Of a DNA stretch of 64,000 nt, positions 2,441-64,000 are shown piece after piece. The DNA comes from an uncultured candidatus Brocadiaceae bacterium (GTDB lineage Bacteria; Planctomycetota; UBA11346), in contig CAZZAM010000003.1 of assembly GCA_964652775.1 (NCBI GenBank), forward strand, positions 26,633-90,632, given 5' to 3'. The notes beneath the pieces are model-generated. The model had not been told where the DNA came from, made no database searches, and saw nothing but the letters and a program-made list of their open reading frames with translations. A program made the translations under genes and the position numbers. Every line of letters begins with the position of its first letter. Position 1 is the stretch's first letter.

Positions 2441-2670
2441 TCTCTATTGCAGCATTTTGGTATCCGACGGTGATACCAATTAAACTCAACACATCCCGGT
2501 AAGCCCATCCTGCTGTGCGACATCGATCATGCTCTACCCAGGTTCGCCATCCTCGCCTGAAGGACCACTACCACCTACGCCATACGACACCTGAATCTCA
2601 TAGATCAAGACACCTTGACTCCCGACAACGTCACAGATGGACAGGTCCATTCAGGACTCTAGCATCAGGC

Positions 2671-46096: not shown

Positions 46097-47085
46097 TCCG
46101 AATTCAAGCACTCACCGTTTGGTGCGCGTTATCGGCTTGGTGCAGTGAAGCCCCATCGCGAGCAGTGATAGAAGCGGCCCAGCGCCAAGACTGGCCAGCG
46201 GTCATCACCGCCTGCGCCGCAGACTTCAGCCGTGAACAATCGCATGATGGATTCTGGGTCCTCTATGCCCGCGCCGCGATCGAACATGATGATCTGCGTT
46301 TAGCTGCGTCTCTGATCGACGGCGCATTGTCACGCTTTCCAGCCAACTCCGATGTACGCCGCCTGGAATTGGTTTACCTCAGTCGTTCCAAGCAAGCCGC
46401 GCCGTTACTCCGCGCCACCCAGGAATGGCTTCGTCTGCACGCTGATGATGTCGAAGCGTGGTCAGCACGCGCGTGGGCTGCTGCCAACCTCGGCGACCTG
46501 GCCGGCGCGTGCGCAGCGCTTGAGGCAATCGTACTCATGCACCCCGATGACCAGCAACGACGTCGGCAATTAGCCGAGCAACTACGCCATCAAGGTCTGA
46601 GTAGGGCGGCACTTGTTCACTATCAACTGCTTGTCGCACAAACCCCGTTGGATGTCGATCTCGTCGTAGCCGCCGCTACGTGCGCTGGCGATGCCAACAA
46701 TCCTCGCCTGGGCAGAACGTGGCTGAACGCGCTGCCGGGCGGTCGTCAGCAACAACTTTTGTCGGCTCGTTTGGCGGTTCAAGCTGGCGATCAGGCCGCA
46801 GCCGTGGCAGCTTTGGACATACTGATCAGCAACGGTGAGAATGACGCTCGTGTATTGGTATGGGCCGGACATCTCGCCGATCTGCGTGGCGATCTCGCTC
46901 GCGCCGAGGCGCTCTATAGTTCTGCTACGACTGCTGCGAAAGACGGGTCAGCAACGCTCCAATTAGCTGATCTCTACCGGCGAACCAATCGTACTGAGCA
47001 ATCACGCCAACTGTTAGAGCGTCATCTTGCCGCATACCCTGGCGATGCTGCCGCTCGAACTATGCTGGAAGCACTCCGCCAATAA
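46093..47085 (+). CDS. Secreted TPR protein (TtpD-like)
   Basis: Signal peptide; TPR-like helices (ALEAIVLMHPDD, YQLLVAQTPLD, LERHLAAYPGD). Confidence 0.8.
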   Translation: MIRIQALTVWCALSAWCSEAPSRAVIEAAQRQDWPAVITACAADFSREQSHDGFWVLYARAAIEHDDLRLAASLIDGALSRFPANSDVRRLELVYLSRSKQAAPLLRATQEWLRLHADDVEAWSARAWAAANLGDLAGACAALEAIVLMHPDDQQRRRQLAEQLRHQGLSRAALVHYQLLVAQTPLDVDLVVAAATCAGDANNPRLGRTWLNALPGGRQQQLLSARLAVQAGDQAAAVAALDILISNGENDARVLVWAGHLADLRGDLARAEALYSSATTAAKDGSATLQLADLYRRTNRTEQSRQLLERHLAAYPGDAAARTMLEALRQ

Positions 47086-47136: not shown

Positions 47137-49650
47137 TCAGTTGGCGATTTTCTGCACGCCCATCTTGTTCCCAAGGATGGCCGCAGCACCAAGTGACAGC
47201 ATACCCGACGCATCCCAGTGCATTTCACCGGTCTTGTCGTTGGTATCGGCGGTGAAGAAGGCGTAGGCCTCCGTAATCTCAAGCCGCTGTCGGTAATCGG
47301 TCAACTGCTTCTGTAATTCCGGCTTCACCATCGCTGCGAAGGGACTGAAGGTCTTAACCAACGCTGCAGGTCGCATCAAGATACAGAACTGCGGCGCCTT
47401 GGTTGGCAGAGCTGCGATCGCCTTGCGAATGTCGCTCTGCTTGGTGAAGCCACCCATTCGATCAATGCCCGCGAGACCGCCGGGATTCGTCGTGCAGATC
47501 AGCTTGCCTTGCTGGTAGCCCATACTGAAGGCACTCATACCAGCATACATGGTGACCGTGCCGTCAGCATCACGCGTTTCGCCAGTCAGCGCGATTAGGT
47601 CGTCAGCAGTCGCCTGCGGCATGTCGATTTCGGCGGTGAACACCGGCATAGGAACACCGGGCTCAATCCAGGCCACGACGTTTCCATCAATAGTTGCTAT
47701 CGCTGTCCTGACCTTTTGGACGATCTGAGCCGTCTTGGTTTTATCCTCGATTGGCAGTGTGAGAAGCATCCCGTCGATCATGCTATCAAAGGCGACAGTC
47801 ATCGCGCTCGTCTGAGTCGTTTGTGGATGCATGACGAATCCAGATGCCAGAAATGCGTTTTCTGGAACAGCATCCAACCGCTTCAGATCCAGACGTGGAT
47901 ACGGCTGTGCATCTGCTAATGGTTTCAGTCCATCACCTATGACCGATGCGAATCGAATTCCGTCGTCGGTGACCGTCAACCGCATTGAAGTGCAGACTTT
48001 GGGTACCTTGCCAGGAATGCCGGGGTCAGTCCACATACTGGCTTCCAAATCAGCTTCTGGGGCAGCGGATCGCTCGGCGAGTGGCAGCATCGTTGCCAGC
48101 GACGCCAGTTGCTTGCCGTGGAGTTCAAAGCGTGCGCCGTTCAACACCAGGCGACTTTCGTCAGTCCCTTTCTTCAACGTCCATCCATCGGCACTTGGAC
48201 TGGCCGAATCAAAACCAAGACACGCACCGGCCTGCAATTGTTGTTTCATAAGACCTAACGCAGGAGCATCTGCTGATGCAAATGCCAACCAGCCATGCAG
48301 CGACCCCATGGTATGCTGCAATGCTGCCGAAGGGTCTTCATCATGTTCGCTCAGTAGTTTGATCTGCGTGCTCAGACGCTCTTTGTCCGCGTCATTCGTC
48401 GCTTGGGCCAATTCCTGCTGCAGGAGCACGGCTTTTTGAGCCGACTGTTTCACCGCTTCCATCTGTTTATGGGCCTTGTCCATAGTCTGTTTCGTAAACG
48501 CAATCTGGATTTGACTTCGTTCCGCACTGGTCGTCGCCTTGCGCATTTTGAGCTGCATGTCATATCCAGCAGCCCGATCTTCGGGTGTAGATATGGCATC
48601 CATACCAAGCACTAGCACGCCTTCGCGGACTGAAGCAATGGTGTTCAGCACGTCTTCGCCACCGGGCGGCATCAGTGCCATTTCCGGCACTTTGCGCAGG
48701 CGTGCGATGGTACGCGGGCCGTTGTTCCAACGCACAGCGCCCCAACCGCTGGCCTTCTCGGGATTGATCTCGAAGTCCTCTCCCTCTGGTGGTGGATTAG
48801 CGACGACCGCCTTCACGACGGTCGGCTTGGTTATGGGTGATGTGATTGGAGCGTCGCTGCTGCTCGACAAGATCACACCGGTGGTTGCACCACCGATGAC
48901 CAGGAGAGAAGCGGCGACGATGGCAAAACGGGACATGTTCGATCTTTCGGGACGCGACCAGCGGACGACACGGTCGGAAAGAGCGGCGGTCGTCCCCGCT
49001 CCTCCACCGGCCTGAGCCAGATCACGCAGATGGACCATCACCGTCGCCGGTACCGCCGCTTGTGCTTCTGCTTGTAAGCAGGTGAGCAATGCGGCTGCAC
49101 TGAGCACCACACCACGTCCGGCCAGTTGCGTCCGCAGACGCGCGAGGCCGCGATTGAGGCGGTCTTTCACGGTGCTCAGCCCCGCGTTGGTTTGCTGCGC
49201 TACCTCGGCCAGGGATCGCCCAGCAAGATAGTGCAACGTGACCGCTTCACGCTCGGCAGCAGGAAGTTCAGCCAAACAGGCATCTAGGTGATCCTCGAAG
49301 CCGGACATGGCCGCCTCCTCAGCAGCTGGTTGTGGTGGTGGTGCAGACAATTCGGCGCGCGTGCGCCGATAACTATCACGCTTGGCATTGCGAACGACGT
49401 TGCTTGCCACCGTCATCAGCCAGGCCGCAAGGACCGGACTTGCCGCGGCTTGATCACGCTTTTGGGCGAGAACCAAGAACACAGCTTGGGTGGCATCATC
49501 GGCATCCGCAGCGCCCAACGCGCGACGGCAGCGATTGAACACCATCGGGGCGTAACGGGTCACGATGGCGTCGTAACCACGTTCATCTCCTGCTGCCCAC
49601 GCCTTGGCGAGGTCAGTATCGGTTTGTTCAAGCACTGGAAGGTGATCCAT
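47137..49650 (-). CDS. ECF sigma-70 factor fused through a TM helix to a large C-terminal domain
   Basis: Region 2: YAPMVFNRCRR..DADDATQAVFLVL..AWLMTVASN. Region 4: LPAAEREAVTLHY..SLAEVA..TVKDRLNRG. TM: FAIVAASLLVIGGATTGVIL. Confidence 0.9.
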   Translation of the reverse strand: MDHLPVLEQTDTDLAKAWAAGDERGYDAIVTRYAPMVFNRCRRALGAADADDATQAVFLVLAQKRDQAAASPVLAAWLMTVASNVVRNAKRDSYRRTRAELSAPPPQPAAEEAAMSGFEDHLDACLAELPAAEREAVTLHYLAGRSLAEVAQQTNAGLSTVKDRLNRGLARLRTQLAGRGVVLSAAALLTCLQAEAQAAVPATVMVHLRDLAQAGGGAGTTAALSDRVVRWSRPERSNMSRFAIVAASLLVIGGATTGVILSSSSDAPITSPITKPTVVKAVVANPPPEGEDFEINPEKASGWGAVRWNNGPRTIARLRKVPEMALMPPGGEDVLNTIASVREGVLVLGMDAISTPEDRAAGYDMQLKMRKATTSAERSQIQIAFTKQTMDKAHKQMEAVKQSAQKAVLLQQELAQATNDADKERLSTQIKLLSEHDEDPSAALQHTMGSLHGWLAFASADAPALGLMKQQLQAGACLGFDSASPSADGWTLKKGTDESRLVLNGARFELHGKQLASLATMLPLAERSAAPEADLEASMWTDPGIPGKVPKVCTSMRLTVTDDGIRFASVIGDGLKPLADAQPYPRLDLKRLDAVPENAFLASGFVMHPQTTQTSAMTVAFDSMIDGMLLTLPIEDKTKTAQIVQKVRTAIATIDGNVVAWIEPGVPMPVFTAEIDMPQATADDLIALTGETRDADGTVTMYAGMSAFSMGYQQGKLICTTNPGGLAGIDRMGGFTKQSDIRKAIAALPTKAPQFCILMRPAALVKTFSPFAAMVKPELQKQLTDYRQRLEITEAYAFFTADTNDKTGEMHWDASGMLSLGAAAILGNKMGVQKIAN

Positions 49651-49727
49651 CTGCGAGGACTCCTGCACCAACATATGTCCTCAGCATGGACACCTGGCCG
49701 GATCTTTCAGTCTTGTCACCCAAACTG

Positions 49728-50438
49728 TTAGAATAACGAGTTATACAGACTGCCTGGAATCAACGATGCCGACTGCTGCTGCTTGACCACCTGCAGCTCA
49801 CGTTGCTCCTTGGTCGTCCGATTGCTGCCTTCAAGCGTCTGCTGCACCGTGGTTAGGTCTTCGACGCGTCCGGAAATGCGCTCGACCTGCTTGTTTGCCA
49901 GGTCGTTGTCAGTGGTCGTTTTCTCCTTCGCGGCGGCGAGCACTTTGGCAGCTTCGCGCAACTGACCTTCGCTGGCCGTGCTGAGATCGATTTTTCGCAG
50001 GTCCTTGAGCGACGAAATCGTGTCCGATGCCTTTGTTCCTAGCTCTTCCGGCTCGCTTATCGTGGCCCGCTTCACATCGTAGATTTTGTTGGTCAAGGTT
50101 TTGTCAGCCAGAGCATTCTTCTGCTCTTTGACTCCTTCATCAATCGCATCAAGTTCTTTGGTTAGCTCGAGCTGCAGTTTGCGTTTGTCTTCAGCGCTGA
50201 TTCCTGGCTTGAGCGCTTGATCAATCGTGTCGCTCGCCTTGCTGACTTGGTCTTTCACCTTGGTGGTGCCATCACGAACTTTGGTTGCCTGCGTATAGCC
50301 CTTAGCCGCGTCACTGAGGCGTGCCTGGTTGGCGCGCTTGGCGCCGGAAACTGCTTCAGATGTCGCGTCGTTCGTCGTCTTGGTTGATCGTGTTGCCTGG
50401 TTGTACTGGTAACTCTTCACCAATTGATCAATACGCAT
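49728..50438 (-). CDS. Helical hypothetical protein, divergent flagellin-like
   Basis: GGAGG RBS before ATG 50438. QALKPGISAEDKRKLQLELTKELDAID and IDLSTAS...VERISGRVEDL echo flagellin D1 helices, but the canonical RIN.A.DDAAG and FNG motifs are absent. Confidence 0.5.
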   Translation of the reverse strand: MRIDQLVKSYQYNQATRSTKTTNDATSEAVSGAKRANQARLSDAAKGYTQATKVRDGTTKVKDQVSKASDTIDQALKPGISAEDKRKLQLELTKELDAIDEGVKEQKNALADKTLTNKIYDVKRATISEPEELGTKASDTISSLKDLRKIDLSTASEGQLREAAKVLAAAKEKTTTDNDLANKQVERISGRVEDLTTVQQTLEGSNRTTKEQRELQVVKQQQSASLIPGSLYNSLF

Positions 50439-50467
50439 GGCAGCCTCCGTGCTGACCAAGCTGACGG

Positions 50468-50608: not shown

Positions 50609-53600
50609 TTATGCGTTTGGCCCACGCCAGCGCAGAGCGCAGAACCCAGCCAACCCGAACAACAGGACTGCGCCGCATAGCCAAAGCCACGGTCGCCACG
50701 ACGACCGCAATGGCGTTAGAACTAATTCACCATCCAGTGCTCCACCTTGGCCACGCAACATCAAGACGTTACCTGTCGGCTCGCGCACCAATTCAATCCC
50801 TGTGAGTGCCGTGCCGTTGATGAGCGCAAGACCTGGTGGCATTTGTCCCATACCGAGCCCGCCGCCTCCGACGAGATGGAGCGCATCGTCCCAGGGAACC
50901 ACCTGCGCTGATAGACGCGCCGGCTGATCCAGCGCTGACAGTCGATCAAGCGCAGGCCGCATTGACTTCTGTGCTATATCATTGTTGTTCCAACGATTTC
51001 CCAATTGATCGATGTTGAGCTGCCGACGACGATCAGCGCGGTTGCCATAGGCTCCTTTGATCTGCAGCTGCATTTCATTCAAACGCTGGCCATTGTCAGA
51101 AATCGCTTTGGTTGTCGATTGGACCTTTGACGACCACAGTGATGATGCCGCCGCCAGTCCGCGCAGTTCTGCGCTGCGTTGGCCGATGCTGATAAGATGA
51201 TCCTTGAGTTCGCTATCGAGCACGGCGAGTTGTCCTTCAAGTCGCTTGAGACCAGCCTCATTCAGGCCATCAACCGCCTGCAAACGCTGGATTTCATCGA
51301 TCACGGCCTGGGCCCGATCAGCTGCGGCCTCTGCGGGATCAGCGTTCTGTAGTGCACCGCCAGAGCGCACTAATTCCCAGCCAGGTGGGGCGGCGATCCG
51401 CCAAACGCTCGTGATGACTTTCAGTTCTCCGATCGTCGGAGGCAACAACCGGATTACACCATGACCTGATGCGCGACTGCGCCACACGAGACCAACTCGC
51501 GTGGAGGCTTGACCAGGACGAAGCGTTGAAACCGGCAACCACATACTGCCAGAAACATCACGACGCACGCGCACCGGATGTCCATCGACTCGCGCTTCCC
51601 ACAGCTCAACCCCCTCGGGTACCCGTAGCGGAAATTGCTGTCGCGTCCGATTCACCACATGCCAGGTCGCCAAACCACGTAATTCGCCATCGGGAGCCAC
51701 GCTCACCGAGCCATCAACCAAGGTGGCGAGTCCGTCAGCTCCAGTTGTGGCAGCTAACGGTTCACGCACCAATCCAAGCGACCAGTCGGCCCGAGCAGCT
51801 TTCCACAACAAGCGGATCTGCTTGCGCTCGACCCCGTCAGGAAGCCGGGCAATCGGCGATTCCAATTCACTGAGTCCGTCGATCTCCCGCTTAATAAGGC
51901 CAAGATCGTCTTCCTCGACCAGGGCAATCTGTTGTACGCAACGCAGACCATCAACCTGCGGGGCCTGCATACGCACTGCGCCATCACTCCCAACGGGTAA
52001 ATCAAGTTCGAGATCAATCGCAACTGGTGTCGCGCCTGTAGCCGCCATGCGTAACTGAAGAACGCCCTGATCGTTCTGCCAGCCACCCAAACCAACCCCG
52101 GTTACCGACACCAGCCGAGCACCGATTGGCAGGCGCATGGAAAGCCGATCAATCACCCCCTGTTCGGGCAGCGCATCGATATGCAACGACCAACGTACAC
52201 CGTCGCGGCCGAGGATCACATAGTGTGATAACGTCGCCGTCGTCACTGCGGCATCGGTGGTCAGACGCACAACTGGCGCGGCCGAACTCGGCAGCTCAGC
52301 CGCGGAACGCCAACGCTCACCCGCAAGCAACAGCAGTGCATTGGTGCGCAACAATTCTTGAATCATGCTATCAGGCGACAACGGACGAGCATCGCTGGCT
52401 TCTAGTCTGATGCGGGTGGCACCAGCATCGGCAACCGCCACGCGTAGTCGCCCAGCGACAACTCCGGTACCAAGTGGCATCAGCGTGGGAATGACTGGTG
52501 AACGATCAAATGCCGATCGGTCGGCTTCTAGACGCATGTTGATGCGGGCTCCCGACGTCCACGGCGAGGCTGCGCTCAGCACCATCGCGCGCGCCGCGCC
52601 AGTTCCGGTTACTGCCCACGTTGTGGCACCATCGATTGATGCCACGCGCCACGGTGTAGGCAGAGCGATACGGACACTCTCCTGCGCACCCTTGCCAGCG
52701 ATGACGAGCATGCCGACTGCACGAGCGCGACCCTCACCGACGATAAGCGCAAGATCACGGGTTACCGATAACTCATTGGCCAGTGACTCCCACGCGATGG
52801 TCAGACCGACAGGCTGATCGTCCCAGCGCACGGCTAGTGCCTCACCGTCGATCGGCTGTGCGCTTGCAAGCGCAGCGTGCTCGGGACGCAGAAAACGTTC
52901 TCCATCGGCTGCTGATAATCCAATGCGTCCGCGACTGACCGCCGCACCTGGCACCACCAGCGTCACTGCTGCGCGACCAGAACCACCGCTGCGCGCGACC
53001 ATTCCCTGCAGGCGCACCTGCCGAGACGCGGCCGGTTCAGCAAAGGTTATCACCACTTGATTGCCATCCTGACGCCAGCCTGCCACGCCACTGCCTGCCA
53101 GCTCGGACAAGATAAGTCCCGACGGAACCACCAACCGCGCACTGCCCAGCGGCGCGCCAGCACTCGCCAGAGACACCACTGCCGACCACGCGACGTGACC
53201 CGCAGCAAGACGCACCGTCACGTTTTGCTCGACTGACAGGCGACTGTCCATCGGCGTCGCTTCAGCAGGTAACTGCCAACCCAGATCTATCGCTCCACCA
53301 GCAGTCGGCAGATCGGCTCGTCCATCGACCAACACCAATCCATCAGCAACCGGTCGCCACGGCATGGGCGCCCGTAGCCGGGCCTGACCACCAAGCGTTG
53401 GCGCGACGCGCAGCGAAATCCTGCGGCCACCAGCGCCATCAGTCGCCTTGCGGGTGAATTGAATCGCCAACAGCGCTTGCTGATCTCCCGCCAGCGAAAC
53501 GACCAGTTGATCACCTTCGGTTTTCCAGGTCACGCGTCCGGGTGGCGGCGACGAACCACCAGAAAGCGGCAGCAACTCCAATCCCTGCACGGCGCCGGGT

Positions 53601-53914
53601 AATGGCAGACGCATCACCTGCCAACCAGGCGCAGGAACAGCGATTGGTATTTCCAAACGCCCCTCAACCGCATCGCCGACCAGGGACAGTACAAACGACT
53701 GCGCACCGATTGCCAGTTGTACGGGCGGATCTGCAGGACGTGCAGCACCATGAGTACGCGACCACAAGTCGTCGAACTGTGCACGAGGTAGGGCAACCAC
53801 CACGCCGATCGGGCGCCCCTGCGCATCAAGTCGATCGTAGCCCATGAGGCGCACGGCGTCATCAGCGGCATGCAGTGATGCCAGGACAAACAGCGTCAAA
53901 AACAGGCGATTCAT
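50609..53914 (-). CDS. Giant exported beta-rich protein, paralog C (1101 aa), with coiled-coil insert and C-terminal TM
   Basis: Signal MNRLFLTLFVLASLHA at the ATGA overlap (53914); VALPRAQFDDLW motif; LRVPEGVELWEARVDG modules; terminal TM WLWLCGAVLLFGLAGFCAL. Confidence 0.8.
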   Translation of the reverse strand: MNRLFLTLFVLASLHAADDAVRLMGYDRLDAQGRPIGVVVALPRAQFDDLWSRTHGAARPADPPVQLAIGAQSFVLSLVGDAVEGRLEIPIAVPAPGWQVMRLPLPGAVQGLELLPLSGGSSPPPGRVTWKTEGDQLVVSLAGDQQALLAIQFTRKATDGAGGRRISLRVAPTLGGQARLRAPMPWRPVADGLVLVDGRADLPTAGGAIDLGWQLPAEATPMDSRLSVEQNVTVRLAAGHVAWSAVVSLASAGAPLGSARLVVPSGLILSELAGSGVAGWRQDGNQVVITFAEPAASRQVRLQGMVARSGGSGRAAVTLVVPGAAVSRGRIGLSAADGERFLRPEHAALASAQPIDGEALAVRWDDQPVGLTIAWESLANELSVTRDLALIVGEGRARAVGMLVIAGKGAQESVRIALPTPWRVASIDGATTWAVTGTGAARAMVLSAASPWTSGARINMRLEADRSAFDRSPVIPTLMPLGTGVVAGRLRVAVADAGATRIRLEASDARPLSPDSMIQELLRTNALLLLAGERWRSAAELPSSAAPVVRLTTDAAVTTATLSHYVILGRDGVRWSLHIDALPEQGVIDRLSMRLPIGARLVSVTGVGLGGWQNDQGVLQLRMAATGATPVAIDLELDLPVGSDGAVRMQAPQVDGLRCVQQIALVEEDDLGLIKREIDGLSELESPIARLPDGVERKQIRLLWKAARADWSLGLVREPLAATTGADGLATLVDGSVSVAPDGELRGLATWHVVNRTRQQFPLRVPEGVELWEARVDGHPVRVRRDVSGSMWLPVSTLRPGQASTRVGLVWRSRASGHGVIRLLPPTIGELKVITSVWRIAAPPGWELVRSGGALQNADPAEAAADRAQAVIDEIQRLQAVDGLNEAGLKRLEGQLAVLDSELKDHLISIGQRSAELRGLAAASSLWSSKVQSTTKAISDNGQRLNEMQLQIKGAYGNRADRRRQLNIDQLGNRWNNNDIAQKSMRPALDRLSALDQPARLSAQVVPWDDALHLVGGGGLGMGQMPPGLALINGTALTGIELVREPTGNVLMLRGQGGALDGELVLTPLRSSWRPWLWLCGAVLLFGLAGFCALRWRGPNA

Positions 53915-56900
53915 AGACTCCTCCGTCGAGACCACATGCGGCGCATGACAACGGCGACAACAACAACCAGCGGTAGCCACTCACAGAATGCCAAAGCTAC
54001 TCCAAAAGACTCCTGCCACTGCAGCAACGCCACGCTGAGCGGAATCGCAGCCACCGCACACGCGACGATCAGCCGCGCAACGAAACCAGGAGCAACACAG
54101 ACAATCAGCCCAGCGATCAGCGCCAATGCCCTGCCCAGCACATCGACCTGTCGCAATTCGGTAATCGGAACGAGATGCAACGCAGCGGCGCTCGGGACAC
54201 CAATCCGTTCGCCAACAAAGAACTGTCCGGCAAGATTGATGGCTGGTTCGCAGCGTGGTCGCTGGGGAATCGGAGGCGGCAGGAGACTGCGCGTGTCTCC
54301 CGTGGTGGGCAGTGGCGCTTCTTGGTTCGGCCCGCCAACTCGAGCAACATCACCACCCCCGATGCGCCAACCAGACAACCAGATGCGTTGCGTGCTCTGG
54401 ACAGAGCCTAGAGCGAGCGGCATCCAGGCGGGATTCGTCATCGCAACAGCGCGTAGCGAATGATCGACCGCAATCTGCCATGTAGTCTTGGTTACCGGGA
54501 GGCCACCAAGACCCGGCGGCGCTTGCTTCCCGTCATGCAATGGCGTGACGTAGAGCACCACCAGATGCACCAGCGTTCGGCTTGGCAGATGCAGCAGTAG
54601 TCGATTCCCGTCGCGGCGAACCGCAGCGGGCACGCCATCAATCGCAACTTGCTCGAGCACCGCACCAGTCGGTAAGGCCAAATCCAATTCGGCCAAGCCT
54701 GCTGCGGCCAGGCGACAGGATGCATACGTGCGGATGCCGTGTGGACCAAATTGCGAAGCAAGCTGCAAAGCGTCGATAAATCCAGCCGGAAGCTGCGCCA
54801 ATGCACGATCAGCGGTGCGCCAACCACCGGCATCGCCGTCACCCAATCGCCAAGCTACAGCTACCGCTGCACCAGGAATGGCATTCGCCCACGCCGGTAG
54901 TTCATCGGCGTCAATCGGACGTGCAGCAGGACCAATAGCGATTTGCAGATCACGTTCACCGGGAGCCTGCAGTGCGGCCCAACGCCGTACAACCGGAACC
55001 CGAACTGAGGATGGAAAGGTGACGGTTATCATCGGAATGCGGCCAGCAGCAGCTGGACGTAGTCGCCCTTCAATCCGCAATAGACGTTCCCCCCGCCAGG
55101 GTTTTGCCGAAGCAATCGTGAATGGGCCATCGCCGGTCATGGTCAGACCATCGCCTATGATCCGCAGGTCAGCGTCCTTGACCAAAGGAAGTCCAAGATC
55201 AAGGCGCGTCAATTCCCCATCCCGGACCGCAAGTCGCACGTCCACGCGGCACCACGTTGCCTCGGTAGCTGGCAACAGCCAGCAGACAGCATCGACATCA
55301 ACTGCTGCGGCGCGCGGCTTCGCCGTCACCACAACAGGCGCGATATCACCATCTGAGAATAACTCGGCGCGAGCATAGGCAGGGGCGCTCATGCTTTCCG
55401 GGGATTGCCGCCACCCAGATCCATCAATGGCAAGCTCCACGCCCGGCGCACCTGATATCAGCATGCGATGGGCCGCTCTGGTAGCGTCGTGAATCACTGC
55501 CGGCATTGCCGGTGCGAGTGCCTGGGTCGGCATTTCCGCTGCCAATATGATCGTCATGTCAGTTCCGGGCGCGAGTCCGGCGGGCAAAGCAATGACCGTG
55601 GTTGAACCTGGTACCAGTTCGTCAATGGGCGGCACGACTCCCTGTTCGCTGCGTATGGCAGTTACTTTCCAACCCGCTGGCAGCGCCAGTGGCAAGCGGA
55701 AAACCCGGCTTCCACCAGCACGAATGATCAGCACCTGATCGAAGGTCGAACGCTCGACACCAACCGCGATCGCCGTGCTCGAGGACATGGCAAGGCCAGC
55801 CTCTGGTAGCAATCGGCTTACCATCATGCCGGCATCCGGCGCGGTGACGGCAAACAGGCGCGAACCGTCTTGTTGCGTGCCGAGTGGTCGCCATCCGGGT
55901 GGTGGCTCACAGGACAACGCCTCTGCTGCTACCAAGCGGACGCGTCCGGTCTGCCACGCGGCGCCAATAATGCGCGGCAAGGCCACCGGCGCGTCGGTAG
56001 CCAGAAATCCTTCCAGTACACAGGTGAGCGATCCAGCACTTCGCGTGATCTCAACGCCCCCAGCAATGGGCTGCAAACGTGCTACGCCCGTCAGCGCTGC
56101 GCTACACGTGAATCCGACTGGCAGCTGAACATTGATGACCGACGGCGGGGTTCCCCGCTTGGGATCAAGTTGGATTGCCCACCGCAACGGACGCGGTCCA
56201 TTTTGAACCTGCACATCAAGCATGTGAACCACGCCGTACACCAGAGCGTCATCCCCCCCTCCACCAGGGAGCCAAGCGAACGGCAGCATGGGACCGGGCG
56301 GAATCACCAGACGCCAGCCATCGCCGTCCTTCGCCAAGCCGTGCGCATCTGCCGATCCCTTGCCGTCACCAACGACACGCAGCGACAAGCCACCAGCGAG
56401 CGGCAAGGGGATGTTGGCAGTTCGTCGTTGGATGTCGCCAACCAACGGCACTGTCCATCGGATGACTCCAGAAAACGTTCCCGCCCGTGGTACCAACACG
56501 CGCACCGGATTGCCCGGCGCAAGTACCGCCGGGGCATGACCAAGACTGACCGCACCCAGATATTCCGGAGCAGTAACAAATAGATCTGCCAATGCTGGGC
56601 CGTCACTCCGATTGATGGCGGTGTAGTCCGCCACGAATTCGACCCCGCGCCCATCAATGACCCGCGCGCTTATTTCTGCTGAGGCGATGAACGCAGGCGC
56701 TCCGCGCATTGGCGTTGGAACATCCGGATTGCCAGCGCGGAGTTTCTGATACTCCGCCAACGGCAGGAGCAGCCACTCCTGCTTGGCATCCAACTGCTTC
56801 ATCAATTCAGGCAGCGGAAGCAGAACTGGCTGCTCGATTGCAGACATAACGCTGATGAAGCAGCCCAGCGCCATTATCCACAGTCTGGAAGTCCGGAAGT

Positions 56901-57003
56901 CCGGAAGTCCGGAAGATCTCAAAGCACCTTGTACGGCCGCGATGATGCTTGCTAGACCCCGGACTTTCGGACCTCCGGACTTCCGGACAACTGGCTGTGT
57001 CAT
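53911..57003 (-). CDS. Giant exported beta-rich protein, paralog B (1030 aa), with C-terminal TMs
   Basis: Start at the ATGA overlap (57003); LLLPLAEYQKL motif; LALPTGAVLEQVAIDG modules; hydrophobic C-terminus. Confidence 0.8.
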   Translation of the reverse strand: MTQPVVRKSGGPKVRGLASIIAAVQGALRSSGLPDFRTSRLWIMALGCFISVMSAIEQPVLLPLPELMKQLDAKQEWLLLPLAEYQKLRAGNPDVPTPMRGAPAFIASAEISARVIDGRGVEFVADYTAINRSDGPALADLFVTAPEYLGAVSLGHAPAVLAPGNPVRVLVPRAGTFSGVIRWTVPLVGDIQRRTANIPLPLAGGLSLRVVGDGKGSADAHGLAKDGDGWRLVIPPGPMLPFAWLPGGGGDDALVYGVVHMLDVQVQNGPRPLRWAIQLDPKRGTPPSVINVQLPVGFTCSAALTGVARLQPIAGGVEITRSAGSLTCVLEGFLATDAPVALPRIIGAAWQTGRVRLVAAEALSCEPPPGWRPLGTQQDGSRLFAVTAPDAGMMVSRLLPEAGLAMSSSTAIAVGVERSTFDQVLIIRAGGSRVFRLPLALPAGWKVTAIRSEQGVVPPIDELVPGSTTVIALPAGLAPGTDMTIILAAEMPTQALAPAMPAVIHDATRAAHRMLISGAPGVELAIDGSGWRQSPESMSAPAYARAELFSDGDIAPVVVTAKPRAAAVDVDAVCWLLPATEATWCRVDVRLAVRDGELTRLDLGLPLVKDADLRIIGDGLTMTGDGPFTIASAKPWRGERLLRIEGRLRPAAAGRIPMITVTFPSSVRVPVVRRWAALQAPGERDLQIAIGPAARPIDADELPAWANAIPGAAVAVAWRLGDGDAGGWRTADRALAQLPAGFIDALQLASQFGPHGIRTYASCRLAAAGLAELDLALPTGAVLEQVAIDGVPAAVRRDGNRLLLHLPSRTLVHLVVLYVTPLHDGKQAPPGLGGLPVTKTTWQIAVDHSLRAVAMTNPAWMPLALGSVQSTQRIWLSGWRIGGGDVARVGGPNQEAPLPTTGDTRSLLPPPIPQRPRCEPAINLAGQFFVGERIGVPSAAALHLVPITELRQVDVLGRALALIAGLIVCVAPGFVARLIVACAVAAIPLSVALLQWQESFGVALAFCEWLPLVVVVAVVMRRMWSRRRSL
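56885..56988. repeat. Palindrome of (GGAAGTCC)n octamers inside the 5' end of paralog B
   Basis: ggaagtcc x3 + ggaag (56887-56915) versus ccggactt-type x4 (56959-56988). Confidence 0.9.
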
Positions 57004-60000
57004 GGCTTGTCCGCCATCCATGGATCTGGCGACGCAACCGGGGTGGGAATTGGACGCCGGGCATGCCAAGCAGATAATCCCGCACAGATCACGACCACGC
57101 CGGCTCCTCCGCCAGCGCCCCATGCCAACGCCACCCACGCCGAGGCAGTCGCGAGCGCAGCCGCCATAATAATAAGCGCGATAACGACGATGAGTGCAGC
57201 AACACTGCTTCGTCGGCGCTGCCACCAACCCAGCACCGCAATCACCACGGCGGTTAACCAGCCCAAACCATGCAGCATGGTGATTGACATGAGTTGCAGC
57301 TGGATGTGTCCACCATCACCAAGCCGCGAACATGTGATGAGCCGCCCGACTTGTGGGATCGACACGGTTAAGCCATCAAGCGGGACAATCTGCTCATCCT
57401 GCCCTGACTCATCGCGACGCAGATCGCCACCGACCGCAACGACCGCTAAACGATCGGGAACCCACAATGCACAGACCGTGCGTTCAACTGGCAGCGGACG
57501 TCCCCCTCCGGCACCGCCGACCGACGGCATCTCAATCGCCAGACTGGCGGTTGCTCCGAGTACGCCCTCGCCCAGCGCTATTTCGTAGGCGAAAGCGACA
57601 CGATGGGCACCGACCGCTGCGGCGCGCTCACCGAGCGGTACGACCAAGGCTCCATCAGCCTTTCTGCTGGGTCGCGTCTGGCGACCATCAACGGCGACCT
57701 CAAGCAAGTCGGCTCCTGCTGGCAGTCGCAGTTCTAAGTACGGCCGACCCCGGCTCTCGATCATGATGCCACCAGCAACCCGCAGACGACGGTCTTCGCC
57801 AAGCACAGCGTGATAGCTGACGAGTGAAATGGCTGCATCCGTGAGCGTCACCAAATCGTGACGTTCGATGGTCAAGTTTACTGCCGCAGCTTCGGTACCC
57901 CGGAACGCCGCCACGGTGCCGGGTCCTTGCAAGGTCGGCGGCAAATCCGCCGGAGCGAGCACATCAAGCCCAGCTGCGGTCGCGGTGATCGTCACCGAGC
58001 CATCGCGCGCCACCGCCGTCAGCACGGTGCGTCGGGTCGCGTCATTCAGACTCACTGCAGGCAGATGAATTGTCGCTGGTTTGCCCGCTTCTAGTCGCGG
58101 CAATTTCTCGTTGGTTTCCAACGTCACACTAAAGGAGCCAATCAACGGAGTCTGGAAACGCAGCTCCATGATCGCGCTGCCATCAGCCGCGGTGGTGACC
58201 GGTCGTTCGGCAAGTCCAGCCGCCTTCACTTGAGCCGTGCCTGCCAACCCAGCAGGGAGATGCAGATGGAGGCTGGGCGTGGCCGAGTAACGCACGTCAC
58301 CGTGCCAGGTGATGAGCCGACGTAGTCCACCTTCGGAGACCAGGACTTGTTCTTCCTGGTGCACGATCAGCTCACGACTGCGGGGAGCTGCGGACAGTAC
58401 CGGACTGCGGGCCTGACCGAGCCAGGTCCACGCAAGCGCAACCTCTTCGTCATCGCGAAGACCGTGGACGGCATCAGCTAGCAGCGGATCGGCTGCAACC
58501 GACCGGGCATCGGCGCCAGCAAGATTGTCCGCTGAAATAGCTGATAAAGCCCAGCTTTTCGGTGCGGCGACCGCCAATGTGCCACGAGCCATACGAACGC
58601 CGTCGATGCTCAAGAGTCCGATGTCGAGTCGTGGGGCCGAACCACTGCGTGGCAGCGCGGCCGGAGCCCGGAATCGCAACACCAAACGGCCATCACCAAT
58701 CAGGCGTGAACGCAAGGACAGTTCGATATGGCGGGACGCACCTTCGCCCACCGTTCGACTGTCATCGATCGCCAAGCCGCCAGCGTCGACCAGCTCCCAA
58801 CCCACGGGCAGCGGCGCTGTCAGGATGAATACACCCGCGCGACGGACACCGATCTCGGCAACCACATCTATTCGTGTTTCGTCGTTGGCCAAGCGAACCA
58901 GTTGATGCATGTGCGTCCGGACGTCGGCTTCGAGTCGCACAACAGTGATGGCAAGCGGCGGTGGTGGAGCGAGAAAACGGAATGCCGCAGCTGCGCCTTC
59001 AGATCCAACATCCTTAGGATCTACTTGCGACAGGCCCTCATGCGTCTGCACGGTCACGGCAAGACCCTCGGCTGCCTTGAGAACAACAACGCCAGTCTGT
59101 CGCTCGGCACCAACTACGGTCGGCAAGGTCACCTCCAACAGACGCGATGCACCGGCTGCGACCGGCAGCAAACGCTCCAGTTTGATATGGACCGGCAGCA
59201 CGCCCTCTTTGGCTTCGTGGGTGTGCAAGCGCAATTCGTCACCAACCCGATCCCACGTTCGCAGGCCAGGTGCCTCAACCGCCAGAACCTGACACTCAGC
59301 CGGCAGCTTGATGCTCAAATCCGCCACCGCCCGACGCAGGACGTTGATGTGGATGTTGGATTCGATGGTGATCGTGCGTTCGCCAAGCGTGATCGCGCTG
59401 CCGCTGTCGCACAGTACCAGTGCCTCGCCTGCCGCTGCTGCAACTGGCGCCCGCCATGTCAAACGCACTGAAGGCTGCCCCCCGACAACTGCACGCACCG
59501 TGGTTCCGGTTCCTCCTGCCGTGGGTTGGATCGCCACCGCCAAAGCTGGAGCCAGATTCAATTCGGCGCCGGCTTCTGGCAATTGCAGTTCAAGGCGACC
59601 GCTGCCAGCGCTCGGCAAGACCAGATCCAGACTGCGACCACCGGCCGCGTCACGGGCAACCGGTGCGGCAACATCAGCAGTGAACGTCCAGGTTCCCGCT
59701 GCTGGCAGATGCAGGCGTAAACCTTCGGGTGAACGCTCCAACATGATGCGGTCATCGCTGCCGCGCAGTTTGGCAACCGCAAGTCCGGCCGGCAACGTGA
59801 TCGACGACCAACCAGTTGCCAGCGCCACGACGGTTCCGCTCAGTCGCAGATTCGCCGATTCACCAACCACCGTGCCGGACAGTTCAAATGCGGTCAATGC
59901 GGCACCGATCGGTGGTTTGGTCGGATCAATGGCGGGACGTTGTGACGATTCCCATAGACGACGGAACTCCTCATAGGGCAACAGAACGCCGGCATTTTTC

Positions 60001-60116
60001 GGGTCCGTCGGCGGTAGTTTGTCGTACGGCACATACACCAACGGCGGTGGCGTCGTCTCAACCGCCCATCCGATGGCGCAGAGCATGGTGGCCAGAATAA
60101 AAAGTATGGATCTCAT
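57000..60116 (-). CDS. Giant exported beta-rich protein, paralog A (1038 aa), with C-terminal TMs
   Basis: Signal MRSILFILATMLCAIGWA; VLLPYEEFRRLW motif; LRLPAGADLLEVAVDG modules; about three C-terminal hydrophobic segments. Confidence 0.82.
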   Translation of the reverse strand: MRSILFILATMLCAIGWAVETTPPPLVYVPYDKLPPTDPKNAGVLLPYEEFRRLWESSQRPAIDPTKPPIGAALTAFELSGTVVGESANLRLSGTVVALATGWSSITLPAGLAVAKLRGSDDRIMLERSPEGLRLHLPAAGTWTFTADVAAPVARDAAGGRSLDLVLPSAGSGRLELQLPEAGAELNLAPALAVAIQPTAGGTGTTVRAVVGGQPSVRLTWRAPVAAAAGEALVLCDSGSAITLGERTITIESNIHINVLRRAVADLSIKLPAECQVLAVEAPGLRTWDRVGDELRLHTHEAKEGVLPVHIKLERLLPVAAGASRLLEVTLPTVVGAERQTGVVVLKAAEGLAVTVQTHEGLSQVDPKDVGSEGAAAAFRFLAPPPPLAITVVRLEADVRTHMHQLVRLANDETRIDVVAEIGVRRAGVFILTAPLPVGWELVDAGGLAIDDSRTVGEGASRHIELSLRSRLIGDGRLVLRFRAPAALPRSGSAPRLDIGLLSIDGVRMARGTLAVAAPKSWALSAISADNLAGADARSVAADPLLADAVHGLRDDEEVALAWTWLGQARSPVLSAAPRSRELIVHQEEQVLVSEGGLRRLITWHGDVRYSATPSLHLHLPAGLAGTAQVKAAGLAERPVTTAADGSAIMELRFQTPLIGSFSVTLETNEKLPRLEAGKPATIHLPAVSLNDATRRTVLTAVARDGSVTITATAAGLDVLAPADLPPTLQGPGTVAAFRGTEAAAVNLTIERHDLVTLTDAAISLVSYHAVLGEDRRLRVAGGIMIESRGRPYLELRLPAGADLLEVAVDGRQTRPSRKADGALVVPLGERAAAVGAHRVAFAYEIALGEGVLGATASLAIEMPSVGGAGGGRPLPVERTVCALWVPDRLAVVAVGGDLRRDESGQDEQIVPLDGLTVSIPQVGRLITCSRLGDGGHIQLQLMSITMLHGLGWLTAVVIAVLGWWQRRRSSVAALIVVIALIIMAAALATASAWVALAWGAGGGAGVVVICAGLSAWHARRPIPTPVASPDPWMADKP

Positions 60117-62854
60117 GGACGAACCTCAGGCAAAGGACGTAGACGTTCGGCTTGCTCGGCCATCGTGGCAATCACGTCGGCCGGAGCGGGCAGACCGGAA
60201 CAGGCGGCGGCGATCGAGTGAAATGATAACGGACGCACATTCGCCCACCACGAACCGCGCAGCTGCTCAGCCAACTCGGCAGCGCATGCGAGAGTCCGCA
60301 GGCGTGGACTCGCGACCGACCCCAGAATTGCGCCCGGCATCGGGCAGGCGAGTTCACGCACCGTCTCCAGACGCGTATCGAAGTAGCGCACCGCTGCGGT
60401 TCCGAGCGGCCCACTGCCGCCATCGGCAAGAATGACCTCGAACAGCGCGGTGACGACGGTTGCGCTGGGAATTTCACCAGCATCGACCCGGTCATCGCGG
60501 AAATCAGTGTGCGCCAACCGCCGACGCTCGTAGCCGATCAGACGGGCATGGGTTACCCGTTCCGGATTCCACGTCACCTGGGCCTTGGCATCACGGGCCA
60601 GTATGGTCAGACGTTCGGGCAGCAAGGTCGATTGGACTGCGCGTTGCGCGTCCTCATTACTGCCCAGGAACACCTGTTGTCCGTCGCCAGCCTTGGTCAG
60701 CGCATCCAGGGCCCGGGTGTCAGCAGCACGCTCACCGACACCAAGAATTAGCAGACTGCCGCCGATAGAGCGCAGCGCACCCATCCGCTCGCATGCCGCG
60801 ACCTCGTCGGCACCAGCGATGGCTGCGCCGTCGGTCACCAAGACCACGCGCAGTGCGGTTCCGGGTGTGGCAATTTCACGGGCAACCTGACACGCCAGTG
60901 CCAATCCTTCGGCCGTGTTGGTCGCTCCGGATGGAACGACTCCGTCCAGCGCACGGTGAATGTCAGCCTTCTCGCTGCCGGTGACGATCGGAATCAGGAC
61001 GCGACCACGTTCCGAGAACGATACGACGGCCACGCGGTCTTCCGCCGAAAGCTCAGCCGTAAGTCCATGCAAGGCGAGGCGGGCGCGGTCGAGCGCACCT
61101 GGCCGGGCCATCGAACCAGATGCGTCGACTGCGATAACCAAGCGCAGTGCCTTGCGCTCACCAACCTTGGCCGCTCGACCAACCACGCCCACTGCGACCA
61201 TCGCGGTGCGGCTAGCCATGCGACCACGGGCAAATGGTGCTGGTCCGGCCTCGGCATAGAGCGCGAACGCCTCGCTACCGGTCGGCGTCGGATAATCGGC
61301 GGGCACCGCGTTGATGAAGTGCTCGGGCCGGATGGTCGCGGGATCTGGCAGGCGATTGTTGTTGATTATGTCCGAACGGGCGCGATCGAACGACGAGGTA
61401 TCTGCGTCCAACGCAAACGTCAGGCGAGCATCAGTGCGTACGATCGCCATTGGCGGAGTGCCAAATGCAGCAGTGAATGCTGGAACATCAAGCCCGAGTC
61501 GATCCGTCGGATCAAGCATGTTTGGCGTGGTATTGATCACCAAGCGTCCGCTGCCCATCACCGTCTGCAGACCAGCGCGATGTGCCAACATCACGACCTG
61601 CTCACCAGCACTAAGGCCAGTCGCCGGGGCCAACTGGGTCAGACCGCCCAACATCCGCTCGGCATCCTGCGACAGCGAGACTGGAACCTGATAGTGCTGA
61701 CTCAAATTGATCAGGCGTTGACGCGCATTGAGATCAAGCAGCGGCGATGGCGCACTGTTGGCGAGTCCTGCGGCGAGTTGGTCAGGAGATTGAGCCGCAA
61801 TGCGGTTCAGGGTAGCCGAGATGTCTGGTAGCTGCTTGGACGCATAGCCGTAGGCAGGCCCTTGCGCATGATCTGATTCCGTCCATTCGCGGCTCTTGCG
61901 GAACGCGCTTATTCCGCCCAATTCCGCTGCCGACTGCGCTACATCCCTTTGCTTGTCGGAACCCGGGACGGGAACTATGACAAGTACCGATTGGGACTTC
62001 TGCTCGTGCGCGTCCTTATTGTTCCTTAAGGCGTCGCCGACGCTGCGTGCTGGAGTATTGCCAGGGACGACTGCCAACATGGGACGCTTGCCATCACGCC
62101 GTTCGTTCACCGACGGCGAGGCGGGACGTTCCGTAACTGCCGTTACGCCATCTGCCTTCTTATCGCCATGGCCTTCGACTGGCGCGTCCAGGAGCTTTCG
62201 CTCCAATTTCTGCAGATCCTCCTGCCGCGATTGCGCTCTACCGTTAGCAGCAACCTTTCCTTTCTCGGCGCGTTTGTGGGCGGCGAGGCGCTCTGACCCA
62301 GTACCAGCGTCGTCTTTGCGATCGACGTCATCCTGAGCCTCGCGTTCCTTCATGCTTTCATCGGCGGTTGGTGCTCGCCTACGTCCCAGGTAACCCGATT
62401 TCTCACCGCCCAGGAGTGTTCCATGCTGTTGGTTCAATTCGTACGCTTCCTCTGTCGCCATCTTGTTGGCGTGGAAACGATCCTGCGCCGCCAGAGCAAC
62501 CGGCGCCGATTCAGCAAATGACTCCCGCTTTGCCGTCGTAACCGTAAACAACCCCGCCATCGCCAAGACCAAACACGCTGCAGCCGCGTACCACACGAAG
62601 CCAATGCGCCGGGCCGTGGGCTTGCGCTTCCACCCCGCCTCGGCCCGGGACATCAACAGTGATCGTGTTACTGGACGTAGAGACTCCGGCGCTGGTGGCA
62701 GATTACGGAGAGCGGCCTGGAGGGCGCGGATTTCCTCAAGTTTGGCGCGCAGTTCTGGTTGTTCAGCTAAGGCCTGTTCCATGGCGATGACGCCAGCCGG
62801 TGACAACTGCCCATCTGCGTAGGCCGTGAGATAATCAGCAGGATTGCGGCTCAT
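60113..62854 (-). CDS. Anti-sigma-like N-terminus + TM + YfbK-type vWA protein (vWF_A / VWA / DUF3520)
   Basis: DYLTAYADGQLS...ELRAKLEEI anti-sigma-like helices; TM FVWYAAAACLVLAMAGLF; ALDADTSSF..LP.P.TIRPEHFIN; MIDAS VDASGSM, TNT, LVTDG; ARDAKAQV.WNP..V...RLIGYE.R.L...DF.DD.VDAGEI. Confidence 0.88.
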   Translation of the reverse strand: MSRNPADYLTAYADGQLSPAGVIAMEQALAEQPELRAKLEEIRALQAALRNLPPAPESLRPVTRSLLMSRAEAGWKRKPTARRIGFVWYAAAACLVLAMAGLFTVTTAKRESFAESAPVALAAQDRFHANKMATEEAYELNQQHGTLLGGEKSGYLGRRRAPTADESMKEREAQDDVDRKDDAGTGSERLAAHKRAEKGKVAANGRAQSRQEDLQKLERKLLDAPVEGHGDKKADGVTAVTERPASPSVNERRDGKRPMLAVVPGNTPARSVGDALRNNKDAHEQKSQSVLVIVPVPGSDKQRDVAQSAAELGGISAFRKSREWTESDHAQGPAYGYASKQLPDISATLNRIAAQSPDQLAAGLANSAPSPLLDLNARQRLINLSQHYQVPVSLSQDAERMLGGLTQLAPATGLSAGEQVVMLAHRAGLQTVMGSGRLVINTTPNMLDPTDRLGLDVPAFTAAFGTPPMAIVRTDARLTFALDADTSSFDRARSDIINNNRLPDPATIRPEHFINAVPADYPTPTGSEAFALYAEAGPAPFARGRMASRTAMVAVGVVGRAAKVGERKALRLVIAVDASGSMARPGALDRARLALHGLTAELSAEDRVAVVSFSERGRVLIPIVTGSEKADIHRALDGVVPSGATNTAEGLALACQVAREIATPGTALRVVLVTDGAAIAGADEVAACERMGALRSIGGSLLILGVGERAADTRALDALTKAGDGQQVFLGSNEDAQRAVQSTLLPERLTILARDAKAQVTWNPERVTHARLIGYERRRLAHTDFRDDRVDAGEIPSATVVTALFEVILADGGSGPLGTAAVRYFDTRLETVRELACPMPGAILGSVASPRLRTLACAAELAEQLRGSWWANVRPLSFHSIAAACSGLPAPADVIATMAEQAERLRPLPEVRP

Positions 62855-63432
62855 AGGACGGCCTCACGCAGCATCTGATTGTCACGCAGACGGGACATCG
62901 CTTGATTCAGAATGACACCAACATGCGACACCGACTTACCGAGTCGCTCCGCGATCAATTTGTAGTCAAGTTGGTCGCGATAGCGCAAGATGACGGCGGC
63001 TCGTTCCAGTGGTGGCAGATCAGCGACCGCAGCCCATAACTGCGTGCCGCTATCAACCGGCGTTCCTTCAGGCGGAGTCCGCTGCGAAACCTGTTCCGGC
63101 AGCGGCGCCGTGCGTCGACGACGGAGATGATCCAGGCACTGATTGCGAACCACCGTACACAACCAACCGCCCAGGCTGTGGCGTTCGTTCGCCTTAGCGA
63201 GCAGTCCATGACCGTCACTGCATAAGCGGAGGAATCCCTCCTGCACGACGTCGTCCGCCACATCCGCGTCCCCGGTAATGGCGTGAGCGAGCCGCAGCAG
63301 GTCGGCCTGATGGCGATCAACGATGGCAGAGAATGCGTCCATATTGGCGTAGGTGAGGAACCGCTGAAGGAGAACCACGTCGGCGACGGGATCGATGGGC
63401 GTTTCCACAAACCTATCTACGGACTCAGTCAT
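62851..63432 (-). CDS. ECF RNA polymerase sigma factor
   Basis: AFSAIVDRHQADL..ADDVVQEGFLRL..WLCTVVRNQCLDHLRRR; LPPLERAAVILRY..IAERLG. Confidence 0.93.
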   Translation of the reverse strand: MTESVDRFVETPIDPVADVVLLQRFLTYANMDAFSAIVDRHQADLLRLAHAITGDADVADDVVQEGFLRLCSDGHGLLAKANERHSLGGWLCTVVRNQCLDHLRRRRTAPLPEQVSQRTPPEGTPVDSGTQLWAAVADLPPLERAAVILRYRDQLDYKLIAERLGKSVSHVGVILNQAMSRLRDNQMLREAVL

Positions 63433-63553
63433 GGTTTCTTAGCCGGGCATGCGCCATGGAGATTGGCGAGAACGGTAGGCCGCGCGTGTGGGCGGCGCAA
63501 GCATGACCTCCGCTATTTGGACTACTGTAACGACGTGGTCACGCCCGTGCCAC

Positions 63554-64000
63554 TTACCACCCAGTCACATGTCCGGCATCAATTACGGCTTTTCCACCGC
63601 CAGGAACGACTACCAGCAGCCGTCCACTCTCGTCAATGCCAGCTCCGGTACCCACGAGTTGACCATTGCGACCATCAACGGTGACCCTGCGACCCTGGAG
63701 CACGTCGCGGCGCCGCAGTTGCGGGAGCAAGGGCGATAACCCGCGCAGCGCCAACAGCCCAATGCCTTCCAAAAGATAGCCACGAATAGCCGCCAGTAAT
63801 TCCAACGTTGGCGGCGGTGCCGCGTGTTGGTGCAAGCTGGTTGCGGTCGCTACAAGCTCCGCCGGAAGGTCGGCGGAAAGATTCACGCCACAGCCGACCA
63901 CCACCCGACCAGAACGTCCTTCACACAAAATGCCTCCGAGCTTGCGACCAGCGAGCGTCACATCATTGGGCCACTTGATGCCGAGTTCGATGCCAGCGCA
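63554..64000 (-). CDS. birA: Biotin--[acetyl-CoA carboxylase] ligase, C-terminal part (runs off the window end)
   Basis: Reading from the window end: GIKWPNDVMTLAGRKLGGILCE...VGCGVNL...ATSL...GIDESGRLLV. Confidence 0.9.
   Translation of the reverse strand, partial: CAGIELGIKWPNDVTLAGRKLGGILCEGRSGRVVVGCGVNLSADLPAELVATATSLHQHAAPPPTLELLAAIRGYLLEGIGLLALRGLSPLLPQLRRRDVLQGRRVTVDGRNGQLVGTGAGIDESGRLLVVVPGGGKAVIDAGHVTGW

Follow-up and report, generated by a model that had tools for sequence, protein, structure and literature searches.

What do three very large exported proteins do in an operon that opens with a sigma factor and its anti-sigma, and does the anti-sigma sense them? The question is raised by a five-gene set at positions 50609-63432 of the window, a 64,000-nt stretch of DNA from a Planctomycetota bacterium. 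The five open reading frames (ORFs) are all called on the minus strand. They encode an extracytoplasmic function (ECF) sigma factor of 193 aa (62851-63432), an anti-sigma of 913 aa with a vWA domain (60113-62854), and three proteins which are named here A (1038 aa, 57000-60116), B (53911-57003; 1030 aa if translated from the ATG at position 57003) and C (1101 aa, 50609-53914). A stop codon and a start codon overlap as ATGA at all four junctions (62851-54, 60113-16, 57000-03 and 53911-14). A hairpin scan shows no terminator-like hairpin at any gene junction, and such hairpins are rarer than expected (6, vs 11.9 in shuffled sequence).

An earlier reading of the letters without database searches (the sequence-only reading) had described the five genes and their four overlaps, and this layout is borne out with one caveat. 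In all six orthologs of B, the start lies some 43 residues further in than the ATG at 57003; the A/B overlap is therefore possibly not the start in use. Judging from this alignment, B may start at M44 (nt 56874), which gives a protein of 987 aa, and the A/B overlap would then not be functional.

The five genes are a real and conserved operon of Planctomycetota. The sequence-only reading had taken them for a unit and, indeed, the order sigma, vWA anti-sigma, A and B (or a fused B-C) is kept in relatives down to about 30-40% identity, and also in locus L003, where the cassette lies in another neighbourhood than that of the window with ThiS and pyrI/pyrB on its flanks. The regulator is ordinary, and its cargo is a large family which is undescribed in the databases and literature that were searched.

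Proteins A, B and C and their relatives

A, B and C are Sec-exported paralogs which are anchored in the cytoplasmic membrane through their C-terminal helices. Each has an N-terminal hydrophobic export signal, followed at the other end by three transmembrane (TM) segments in A, about three in B and one in C; the signals and TM segments that had been noticed from the sequence are thus found in all three. BLASTP aligns A with C across 850 residues (E 2e-12), and A with B and B with C as weak colinear patches. When the families are compared with hhalign, A aligns with B over 835 colinear columns (99.1%, E 6e-19) and B with C over 761 columns (98.0%, E 1.5e-13). The three proteins are full-length paralogs, with a homology well beyond chance. 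These pairwise alignments, at 98-99%, agree with the homology that the sequence-only reading had proposed, and the shared N-terminal motif and recurring module on which it relied align mutually in both BLASTP and hhalign.

The architecture is clearest in A, which consists of a signal peptide, an N-terminal LLPYEEFxRLW motif, five beta-sandwich modules and three C-terminal TM helices. The AlphaFold2 model of A, based on 34 homologs, has a mean pLDDT (predicted local distance difference test) of 86.9 and shows an all-beta ectodomain, then the three TM helices (residues 945-1019, nt 57060-57284 on the minus strand). The modules are delimited in this model as D1 (residues 66-228), D2 (229-394), D3 (395-580), D4 (581-756) and D5 (757-944), and the pattern of secondary structure repeats along the protein. 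D2, D3 and D4, which have about 170-185 aa each and together occupy nt 57849-59432, are mutually homologous (hhalign 97-99%), and D1 and D5 are weakly similar to them in sub-alignments. The beta-sandwich array that had been guessed from the letters is thus recovered in the model of A and in the homology of D2 to D4. B has an N-terminal signal or anchor, and about three TM segments at its C-terminus. C has a signal peptide, a beta-sandwich ectodomain and one TM segment at residues 1075-1096; its residues ~860-990 look helical by eye, and its orthologs P0045-P0047 have the same MNR... start.

B and C are two genes in the window, and one protein (BC) of about 2100-2800 aa in most relatives. A profile scan with a narrower alignment gave five genome loci and six metagenome loci. 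B and C are fused as a single ORF of 2080-2390 aa in L006 (where the locus ends at the contig edge), L007/L020, L010, L015 and L018, the first half corresponding to B and the second to C. In the fused protein the two ectodomains are separated by some four clustered TM segments, and one more TM segment lies at the end, which implies that the chain would run outside, cross the membrane four times, run outside again and end in the membrane. In the window, L003 and L019, the split lies after the third internal helix, and the fourth helix has become the signal peptide of C; L001 splits BC elsewhere, into 495 and 1711 aa. The window thus carries a gene fission, the ancestral self-contained unit being two genes, A and a double-length BC. 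The description of three paralogs therefore holds for the window and does not hold as the general state. The fusion in relatives suggests that B and C likely act as one physical unit, and is good indirect evidence that they associate with each other.

In the window, and at every locus where A is a gene of its own and the sequence continues beyond it, BC, or B and then C, comes next after A. L011 and the P0083 locus have a long family member without a separate A. One BC-type gene is called in two ways: in L013 (10212-18510, a contig of an NCBI metagenome-assembled genome, MAG) it is called as two ORFs of 1514 and 1245 aa, and in L014 (5987-14284, a Logan assembly from another run) the same gene is a single 2765-aa call. 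Either a frameshift in an assembly or a real, recent split of the gene would explain the difference.

Word-index searches under-report the family, since they return 36 homologs for A, 7 for B and 5 for C. An exhaustive profile search gives 8988 cluster representatives with a threshold of E <= 1e-3; of these, 3204 pass E <= 1e-30. Among the best 140 matches the lengths are bimodal, with 100 proteins of about 1000-1450 aa and 40 of about 1950-2830 aa; in the long members the A-like ectodomain is present at least twice. The source names seen for the family are all "hypothetical protein", and where a taxon is given, it is a Planctomycetota MAG, Thermoguttaceae or, once, a MAG that bears the label Nitrospiraceae. 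The sequence-only reading had looked to a wider range, over the Planctomycetes-Verrucomicrobia-Chlamydiae (PVC) group, Myxococcota and Acidobacteriota. The relatives that were identified do not follow it: beyond the Nitrospiraceae-labelled MAG they are Planctomycetota, and none belongs to Myxococcota or Acidobacteriota.

A, B and C have no match in Pfam (E <= 0.01) or in NCBIfam, and none in a sequence search of the PDB, either as single sequences or as profiles. When the threshold is relaxed to E <= 1 for 34 members of the A family, no Pfam family recurs, including that of ribophorin I (PF04597). PADLOC matches none of the five operon proteins, and the operon is therefore rejected as a known anti-phage defence system. 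The impression that the paralogs belong to no named family thus withstands all these searches.

The predicted structures are more informative about fold. Foldseek matches the full-length model of A to ribophorin I/Ost1 (E 3e-9), to integrin alpha legs and, more weakly, to complement/TEP proteins; all the template-modelling scores (TM-scores) are low, which fits a flexible rod of several domains. D3 modelled alone has a pLDDT of 95 and a pTM (predicted TM-score) of 0.90. It matches the N-terminal beta domain of M1 aminopeptidases, ERAP and leukotriene A4 (LTA4) hydrolase, with E ~1e-7 and a query-normalised TM-score of ~0.5; against viral models, it matches an M1-like aminopeptidase and, weakly, a giant-virus protein of the inter-alpha-trypsin-inhibitor family (ITIH). 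None of the beta domains that are matched (M1 N-domain, ribophorin I, integrin legs) is catalytic. The modelled fold of the module is thus a non-catalytic beta-sandwich, and it assigns no function. No HExxH motif is found in A, B or C, and no CxEQ thioester motif either. Identity with an M1 aminopeptidase is rejected on the lack of HExxH and of a Peptidase_M1 match in Pfam, only the fold of the N-domain being alike. Membership of the ribophorin I family is rejected as well, since the profile PF04597 does not match and the likeness is one of fold only.

Two explanations of the cargo can be judged on these data. According to the first, the beta-sandwich arrays bind macromolecules (glycans or peptides) which enter the enlarged planctomycetal periplasm, and the vWA anti-sigma reports their load. 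The module fold does resemble the substrate-cradling N-domains of M1 aminopeptidases and ribophorin I, and three family members weakly match the middle beta domain of glycoside hydrolase family 127 (GH127), with a best E of 0.052. However, none of the GH127 sequence matches is significant, Pfam shows no carbohydrate-binding or peptidase domain, and the neighbours of the family at the distant loci (listed below) show no consistent catabolic partner, so that capture of substrates is unlikely to be the role of the proteins. The second explanation is that of an alpha-2-macroglobulin-like (A2M-like) protease trap of the periplasm, or a defence protein. Bacterial A2Ms are large, membrane-anchored, periplasmic beta-sandwich arrays. 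This similar build and the low-ranked matches of the full-length model to complement C5 and TEP1r speak for such a protein, but the TM-scores of these matches are 0.06-0.08 and their probabilities 0.28-0.51, the search with a single module indicates another fold class, and neither an A2M or MG match in Pfam nor a PADLOC match accompanies the missing CxEQ thioester. The explanation is largely refuted and we give it hardly any weight; A2M identity as such is rejected, since neither the thioester nor the MG domains are there.

The regulatory pair and its link to A and BC

The sigma factor matches Sigma70_r2 (1.2e-14) and Sigma70_r4_2 (1.7e-10) in Pfam, and TIGR02937 (sigma70-ECF) in NCBIfam with 78.6 bits for a cutoff of 42.9. 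With its 193 aa and regions 2 and 4 only, it is an ECF (group 4) sigma-70 factor.

The second gene encodes the cognate single-pass anti-sigma, which carries a YfbK-type vWA head with a metal ion-dependent adhesion site (MIDAS) on a long, domain-less tether. A putative anti-sigma domain at its N-terminus (residues ~1-80) is indicated by weak NCBIfam matches over residues 8-125, both under the curated cutoffs (NF052375, E 1.2e-8, 35 bits for a cutoff of 100; PRK13920, E 1.5e-7). One hydrophobic segment, the TM helix, follows at residues 83-109 (nt 62528-62608), and then a linker of about 360 aa without any domain match leads to the head. Pfam finds there, in this order, vWF_A (residues 469-543, nt 61226-61450), VWA (1.8e-13; residues 572-737, nt 60644-61141) and YfbK_C, that is DUF3520 (4.2e-21; from residue 749, nt 60377-60610), all on the minus strand. 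The MIDAS motif of the VWA domain is DASGS at 577-581 (DxSxS, starting at D577), and the domain also carries, by eye, the downstream Thr (GATNT) and Asp (LVTDG). The orthologs of the anti-sigma range from 836 to 1897 aa.

The pair is tightly linked to A in the nearer clade. The sigma and vWA genes stand immediately upstream of A in all eight distinct loci for which upstream sequence is available (L001, L003, L007/L020, L009, L015, L017, L018 and L019; the gene tables of L007 and L020 are identical and were counted once, and L022 shows the vWA gene only). The reading frames of the vWA protein and of A overlap or nearly abut in 8/8 of them. The chromosomal neighbourhoods of these loci differ, and the identity between their A proteins goes down to ~30-40%.

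The intergenic region between birA and the sigma gene (63433-63553, minus strand) was aligned for the window, L003, L009, L017, L019 and L007. A candidate sigma-70-like promoter, assigned from conservation in only four to six sequences, consists of TTGCGC (63500-63495), 17 nt, and TACCGT (63477-63472); the pattern TTGCnn-N17-TA(G/C)(G/C)GT recurs in the window and in the three relatives closest to it. In the same four sequences, the element CTAAGAAACC (63442-63433, minus strand), which abuts the sigma start codon, is conserved as CTAAGAAAC. In addition, five relatives have an ECF-type motif, TGAAC-N15-16-CGTT, about 95 nt upstream of sigma (GGAAC...CGTC in L007).

These data can be put together in a reading which, in our estimation, is evenly poised between right and wrong: A, B and C form a periplasmic assembly in contact with an ECF/vWA anti-sigma switch. 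The three proteins would stand side by side in a hetero-oligomeric periplasmic structure, anchored by about seven TM helices. Since A, B and C have no catalytic motifs, their role would be binding or scaffolding rather than catalysis. The operon of the nearer clade would have acquired an ECF switch of its own, whose tethered vWA head would bind, via the MIDAS, the ectodomains of A, B and C or a ligand which they present. If this contact were lost or changed, the anti-sigma would be inactivated, presumably through the regulated proteolysis that acts on other anti-sigmas of the single-pass type, and the release of sigma would adjust the transcription of the operon.

Several observations weigh against this reading. 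No sigma or YfbK-type gene lies beside the module in any of the seven distant loci (L002, L004, L011, L013/14, L016, L023 and the P0083 locus), which argues that the sensor pair is a clade-specific addition to a self-contained A+BC; the sequence-only reading, which had made the sensor an integral part of the complex, overreached here, as 0/7 of these loci have it. Since A+BC stands without the pair, the vWA head may sense something unrelated. Contact between the vWA head and A, B or C is plausible, though suggested by synteny only, and the feedback loop that the sequence-only reading had proposed is hypothetical. The fold of the modules gives no functional clue, and the match of the anti-sigma domain lies under the curated NCBIfam cutoffs. 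Finally, at the aligned position of the ECF-type motif the window has a degenerate GTAGTCC...GCTT, the sigma-70-like promoter being conserved instead. No GAAC-N15-19-CGTT is found upstream of the window sigma, and the same pattern occurs 16 times across the window for 9.9 matches expected. With the motif in the relatives and its degeneration here, as aligned in a few sequences only, autoregulation is likely in the relatives, and uncertain in the genome of the window.

The absence of the pair from 7/7 distant loci also favours the opposite explanation, in which the cue read by the vWA head has nothing to do with the cargo and comes from the periplasm or the environment (for instance a metal, a foreign protein or a polymer), and A, B and C are only the regulon: envelope proteins which this stress would induce and which would not touch the sensor. 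ECF operons commonly carry regulon genes next door, and this habit would account for the position of A, B and C. Moreover, YfbK-type vWA anti-sigmas are found in other contexts, in ECF289 and ECF35 (PMC7826278; bioRxiv 10.1101/2019.12.11.873521), which again favours a head that does not depend on these proteins. On the other hand, the adjacency of vWA and A is strict in 8/8 distinct nearer-clade loci, and a separate vWA-type neighbour exists in L011; neither point is decisive, and we regard a purely regulated cargo as possible, though on the doubtful side. The neighbour in L011 is a 793-aa VIT+VWA protein (17322-19703, plus strand), encoded directly after a family member of 2420 aa. Together with the weak likeness of D3 to an ITIH-family protein, it makes it possible that partnership with vWA proteins is recurrent in the family, which would fit a periplasmic assembly in touch with a vWA head.

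Genes around the operon

Directly upstream of sigma lies the 3' end of birA, the gene of biotin protein ligase (63554-64000, minus strand). Downstream, 150 nt after C, a K/T/E/D-rich ORF of 243 aa with a TTG start is called at 49728-50459 (minus strand). It has no Pfam or NCBIfam match and no counterpart at related loci, and it may not be a real gene. The next gene (47137-49674, minus strand) encodes a protein of 845 aa. Its N-terminal part carries ECF sigma regions 2 and 4, and is fused to a membrane-spanning extension: a TM segment lies at residues 249-271, and the C-terminal extension of about 570 aa has no Pfam match. Neither the 243-aa nor the 845-aa gene has a counterpart in related loci, and both are rejected as members of the cassette.

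About 3.5 kb from the operon, genes with MotA_ExbB (ExbB-like), TonB_C and TPR domains follow each other at 43196-47085 (plus strand), and form a Ton-type energy-transduction cluster. Further away, at 2515-13647 (plus strand), four large ORFs of 393, 692, 966 and 1681 aa lie on one strand. Two of them have HEAT repeats, and the last one matches WD40 beta-propellers and a caspase (Peptidase_C14); the four ORFs may be another uncharacterised multi-protein cluster.

Comparison with known systems

In Planctomycetes the periplasm is unusual and enlarged and the membranes are invaginated, and the protein basis of these features is poorly known. A, B and C belong to a large family of envelope proteins of 1000-2800 aa which Pfam, NCBIfam and the PDB do not cover, and a membrane-anchored periplasmic array so widespread is a reasonable candidate component of the planctomycetal envelope.

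The known proteins to which A can be compared are alike in fold. The M1 N-domain (as in LTA4 hydrolase) and ribophorin I (Ost1) are, like A, beta-sandwiches with very long hairpins, and ribophorin I is also a type-I membrane protein. A differs from them in that it has no sequence similarity to them, no catalytic domain and no HExxH, in that its module is repeated in tandem, and in that the TM-scores are modest. Integrins and the ITIH proteins (VIT+vWA) offer an analogy, that of membrane-anchored beta-sandwich legs encoded beside a MIDAS vWA protein; A has no beta-propeller, unlike integrins, and its TM-scores to them are low, so that the likeness goes no further than analogy. A speculative idea, which we think improbable, goes as follows: A+BC would be a phylum-wide planctomycetal envelope element, made of membrane-anchored tandem beta-sandwich rods which organise or gauge the large periplasm, and the vWA anti-sigma, with a tether as variable as the lengths of its orthologs (836-1897 aa) suggest, would be a contact or distance sensor, the two working as an integrin-like outside-in pair that feeds the ECF sigma.

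The vWA head itself resembles E. coli YfbK, which has the same vWF_A, VWA and YfbK_C domains and the DxSxS MIDAS motif. The head of the operon differs in that a putative anti-sigma domain, a TM helix and the tether of ~360 aa precede it in one polypeptide. The papers that name YfbK do so only incidentally, and the match therefore gives no mechanism.

The closest described systems are two groups of ECF sigma factors, ECF226, which occurs in Acidobacteria, Planctomycetes and Verrucomicrobia, and ECF289, which is 100% proteobacterial (Casas-Pastor et al. 2021, PMC7826278; bioRxiv 10.1101/2019.12.11.873521). In both groups the anti-sigma is encoded at +1 and has one TM helix, DUF3520 and a von Willebrand domain (PMC7826278; bioRxiv 10.1101/2019.12.11.873521). 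Compared by this description of architecture, the operon is similar: the sigma gene is followed at +1 by a one-TM anti-sigma with VWA and DUF3520. The pair is an already catalogued architecture, of the ECF226/ECF289 type, and not a new one, contrary to the sequence-only reading, which had included it in an undescribed system. Since ECF289 is restricted to Proteobacteria, assignment of the window sigma to ECF289 is less likely. The genetic context of ECF226 is not conserved beyond the anti-sigma, and neither are its promoters (PMC7826278; bioRxiv 10.1101/2019.12.11.873521). The operon differs from this group in its conserved downstream cargo, A and B/C, and in the ECF-type promoter motif of its relatives. 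No description of the A/B/C family or of its linkage to an ECF pair was found in the literature searched; we suspect that the family went unreported because the ECF survey was framed in Pfam domains, of which A, B and C have none. With this operon, a catalogued but context-less ECF group (ECF226-like) gains a conserved candidate regulon, and the sensor and its cargo can be tested together.

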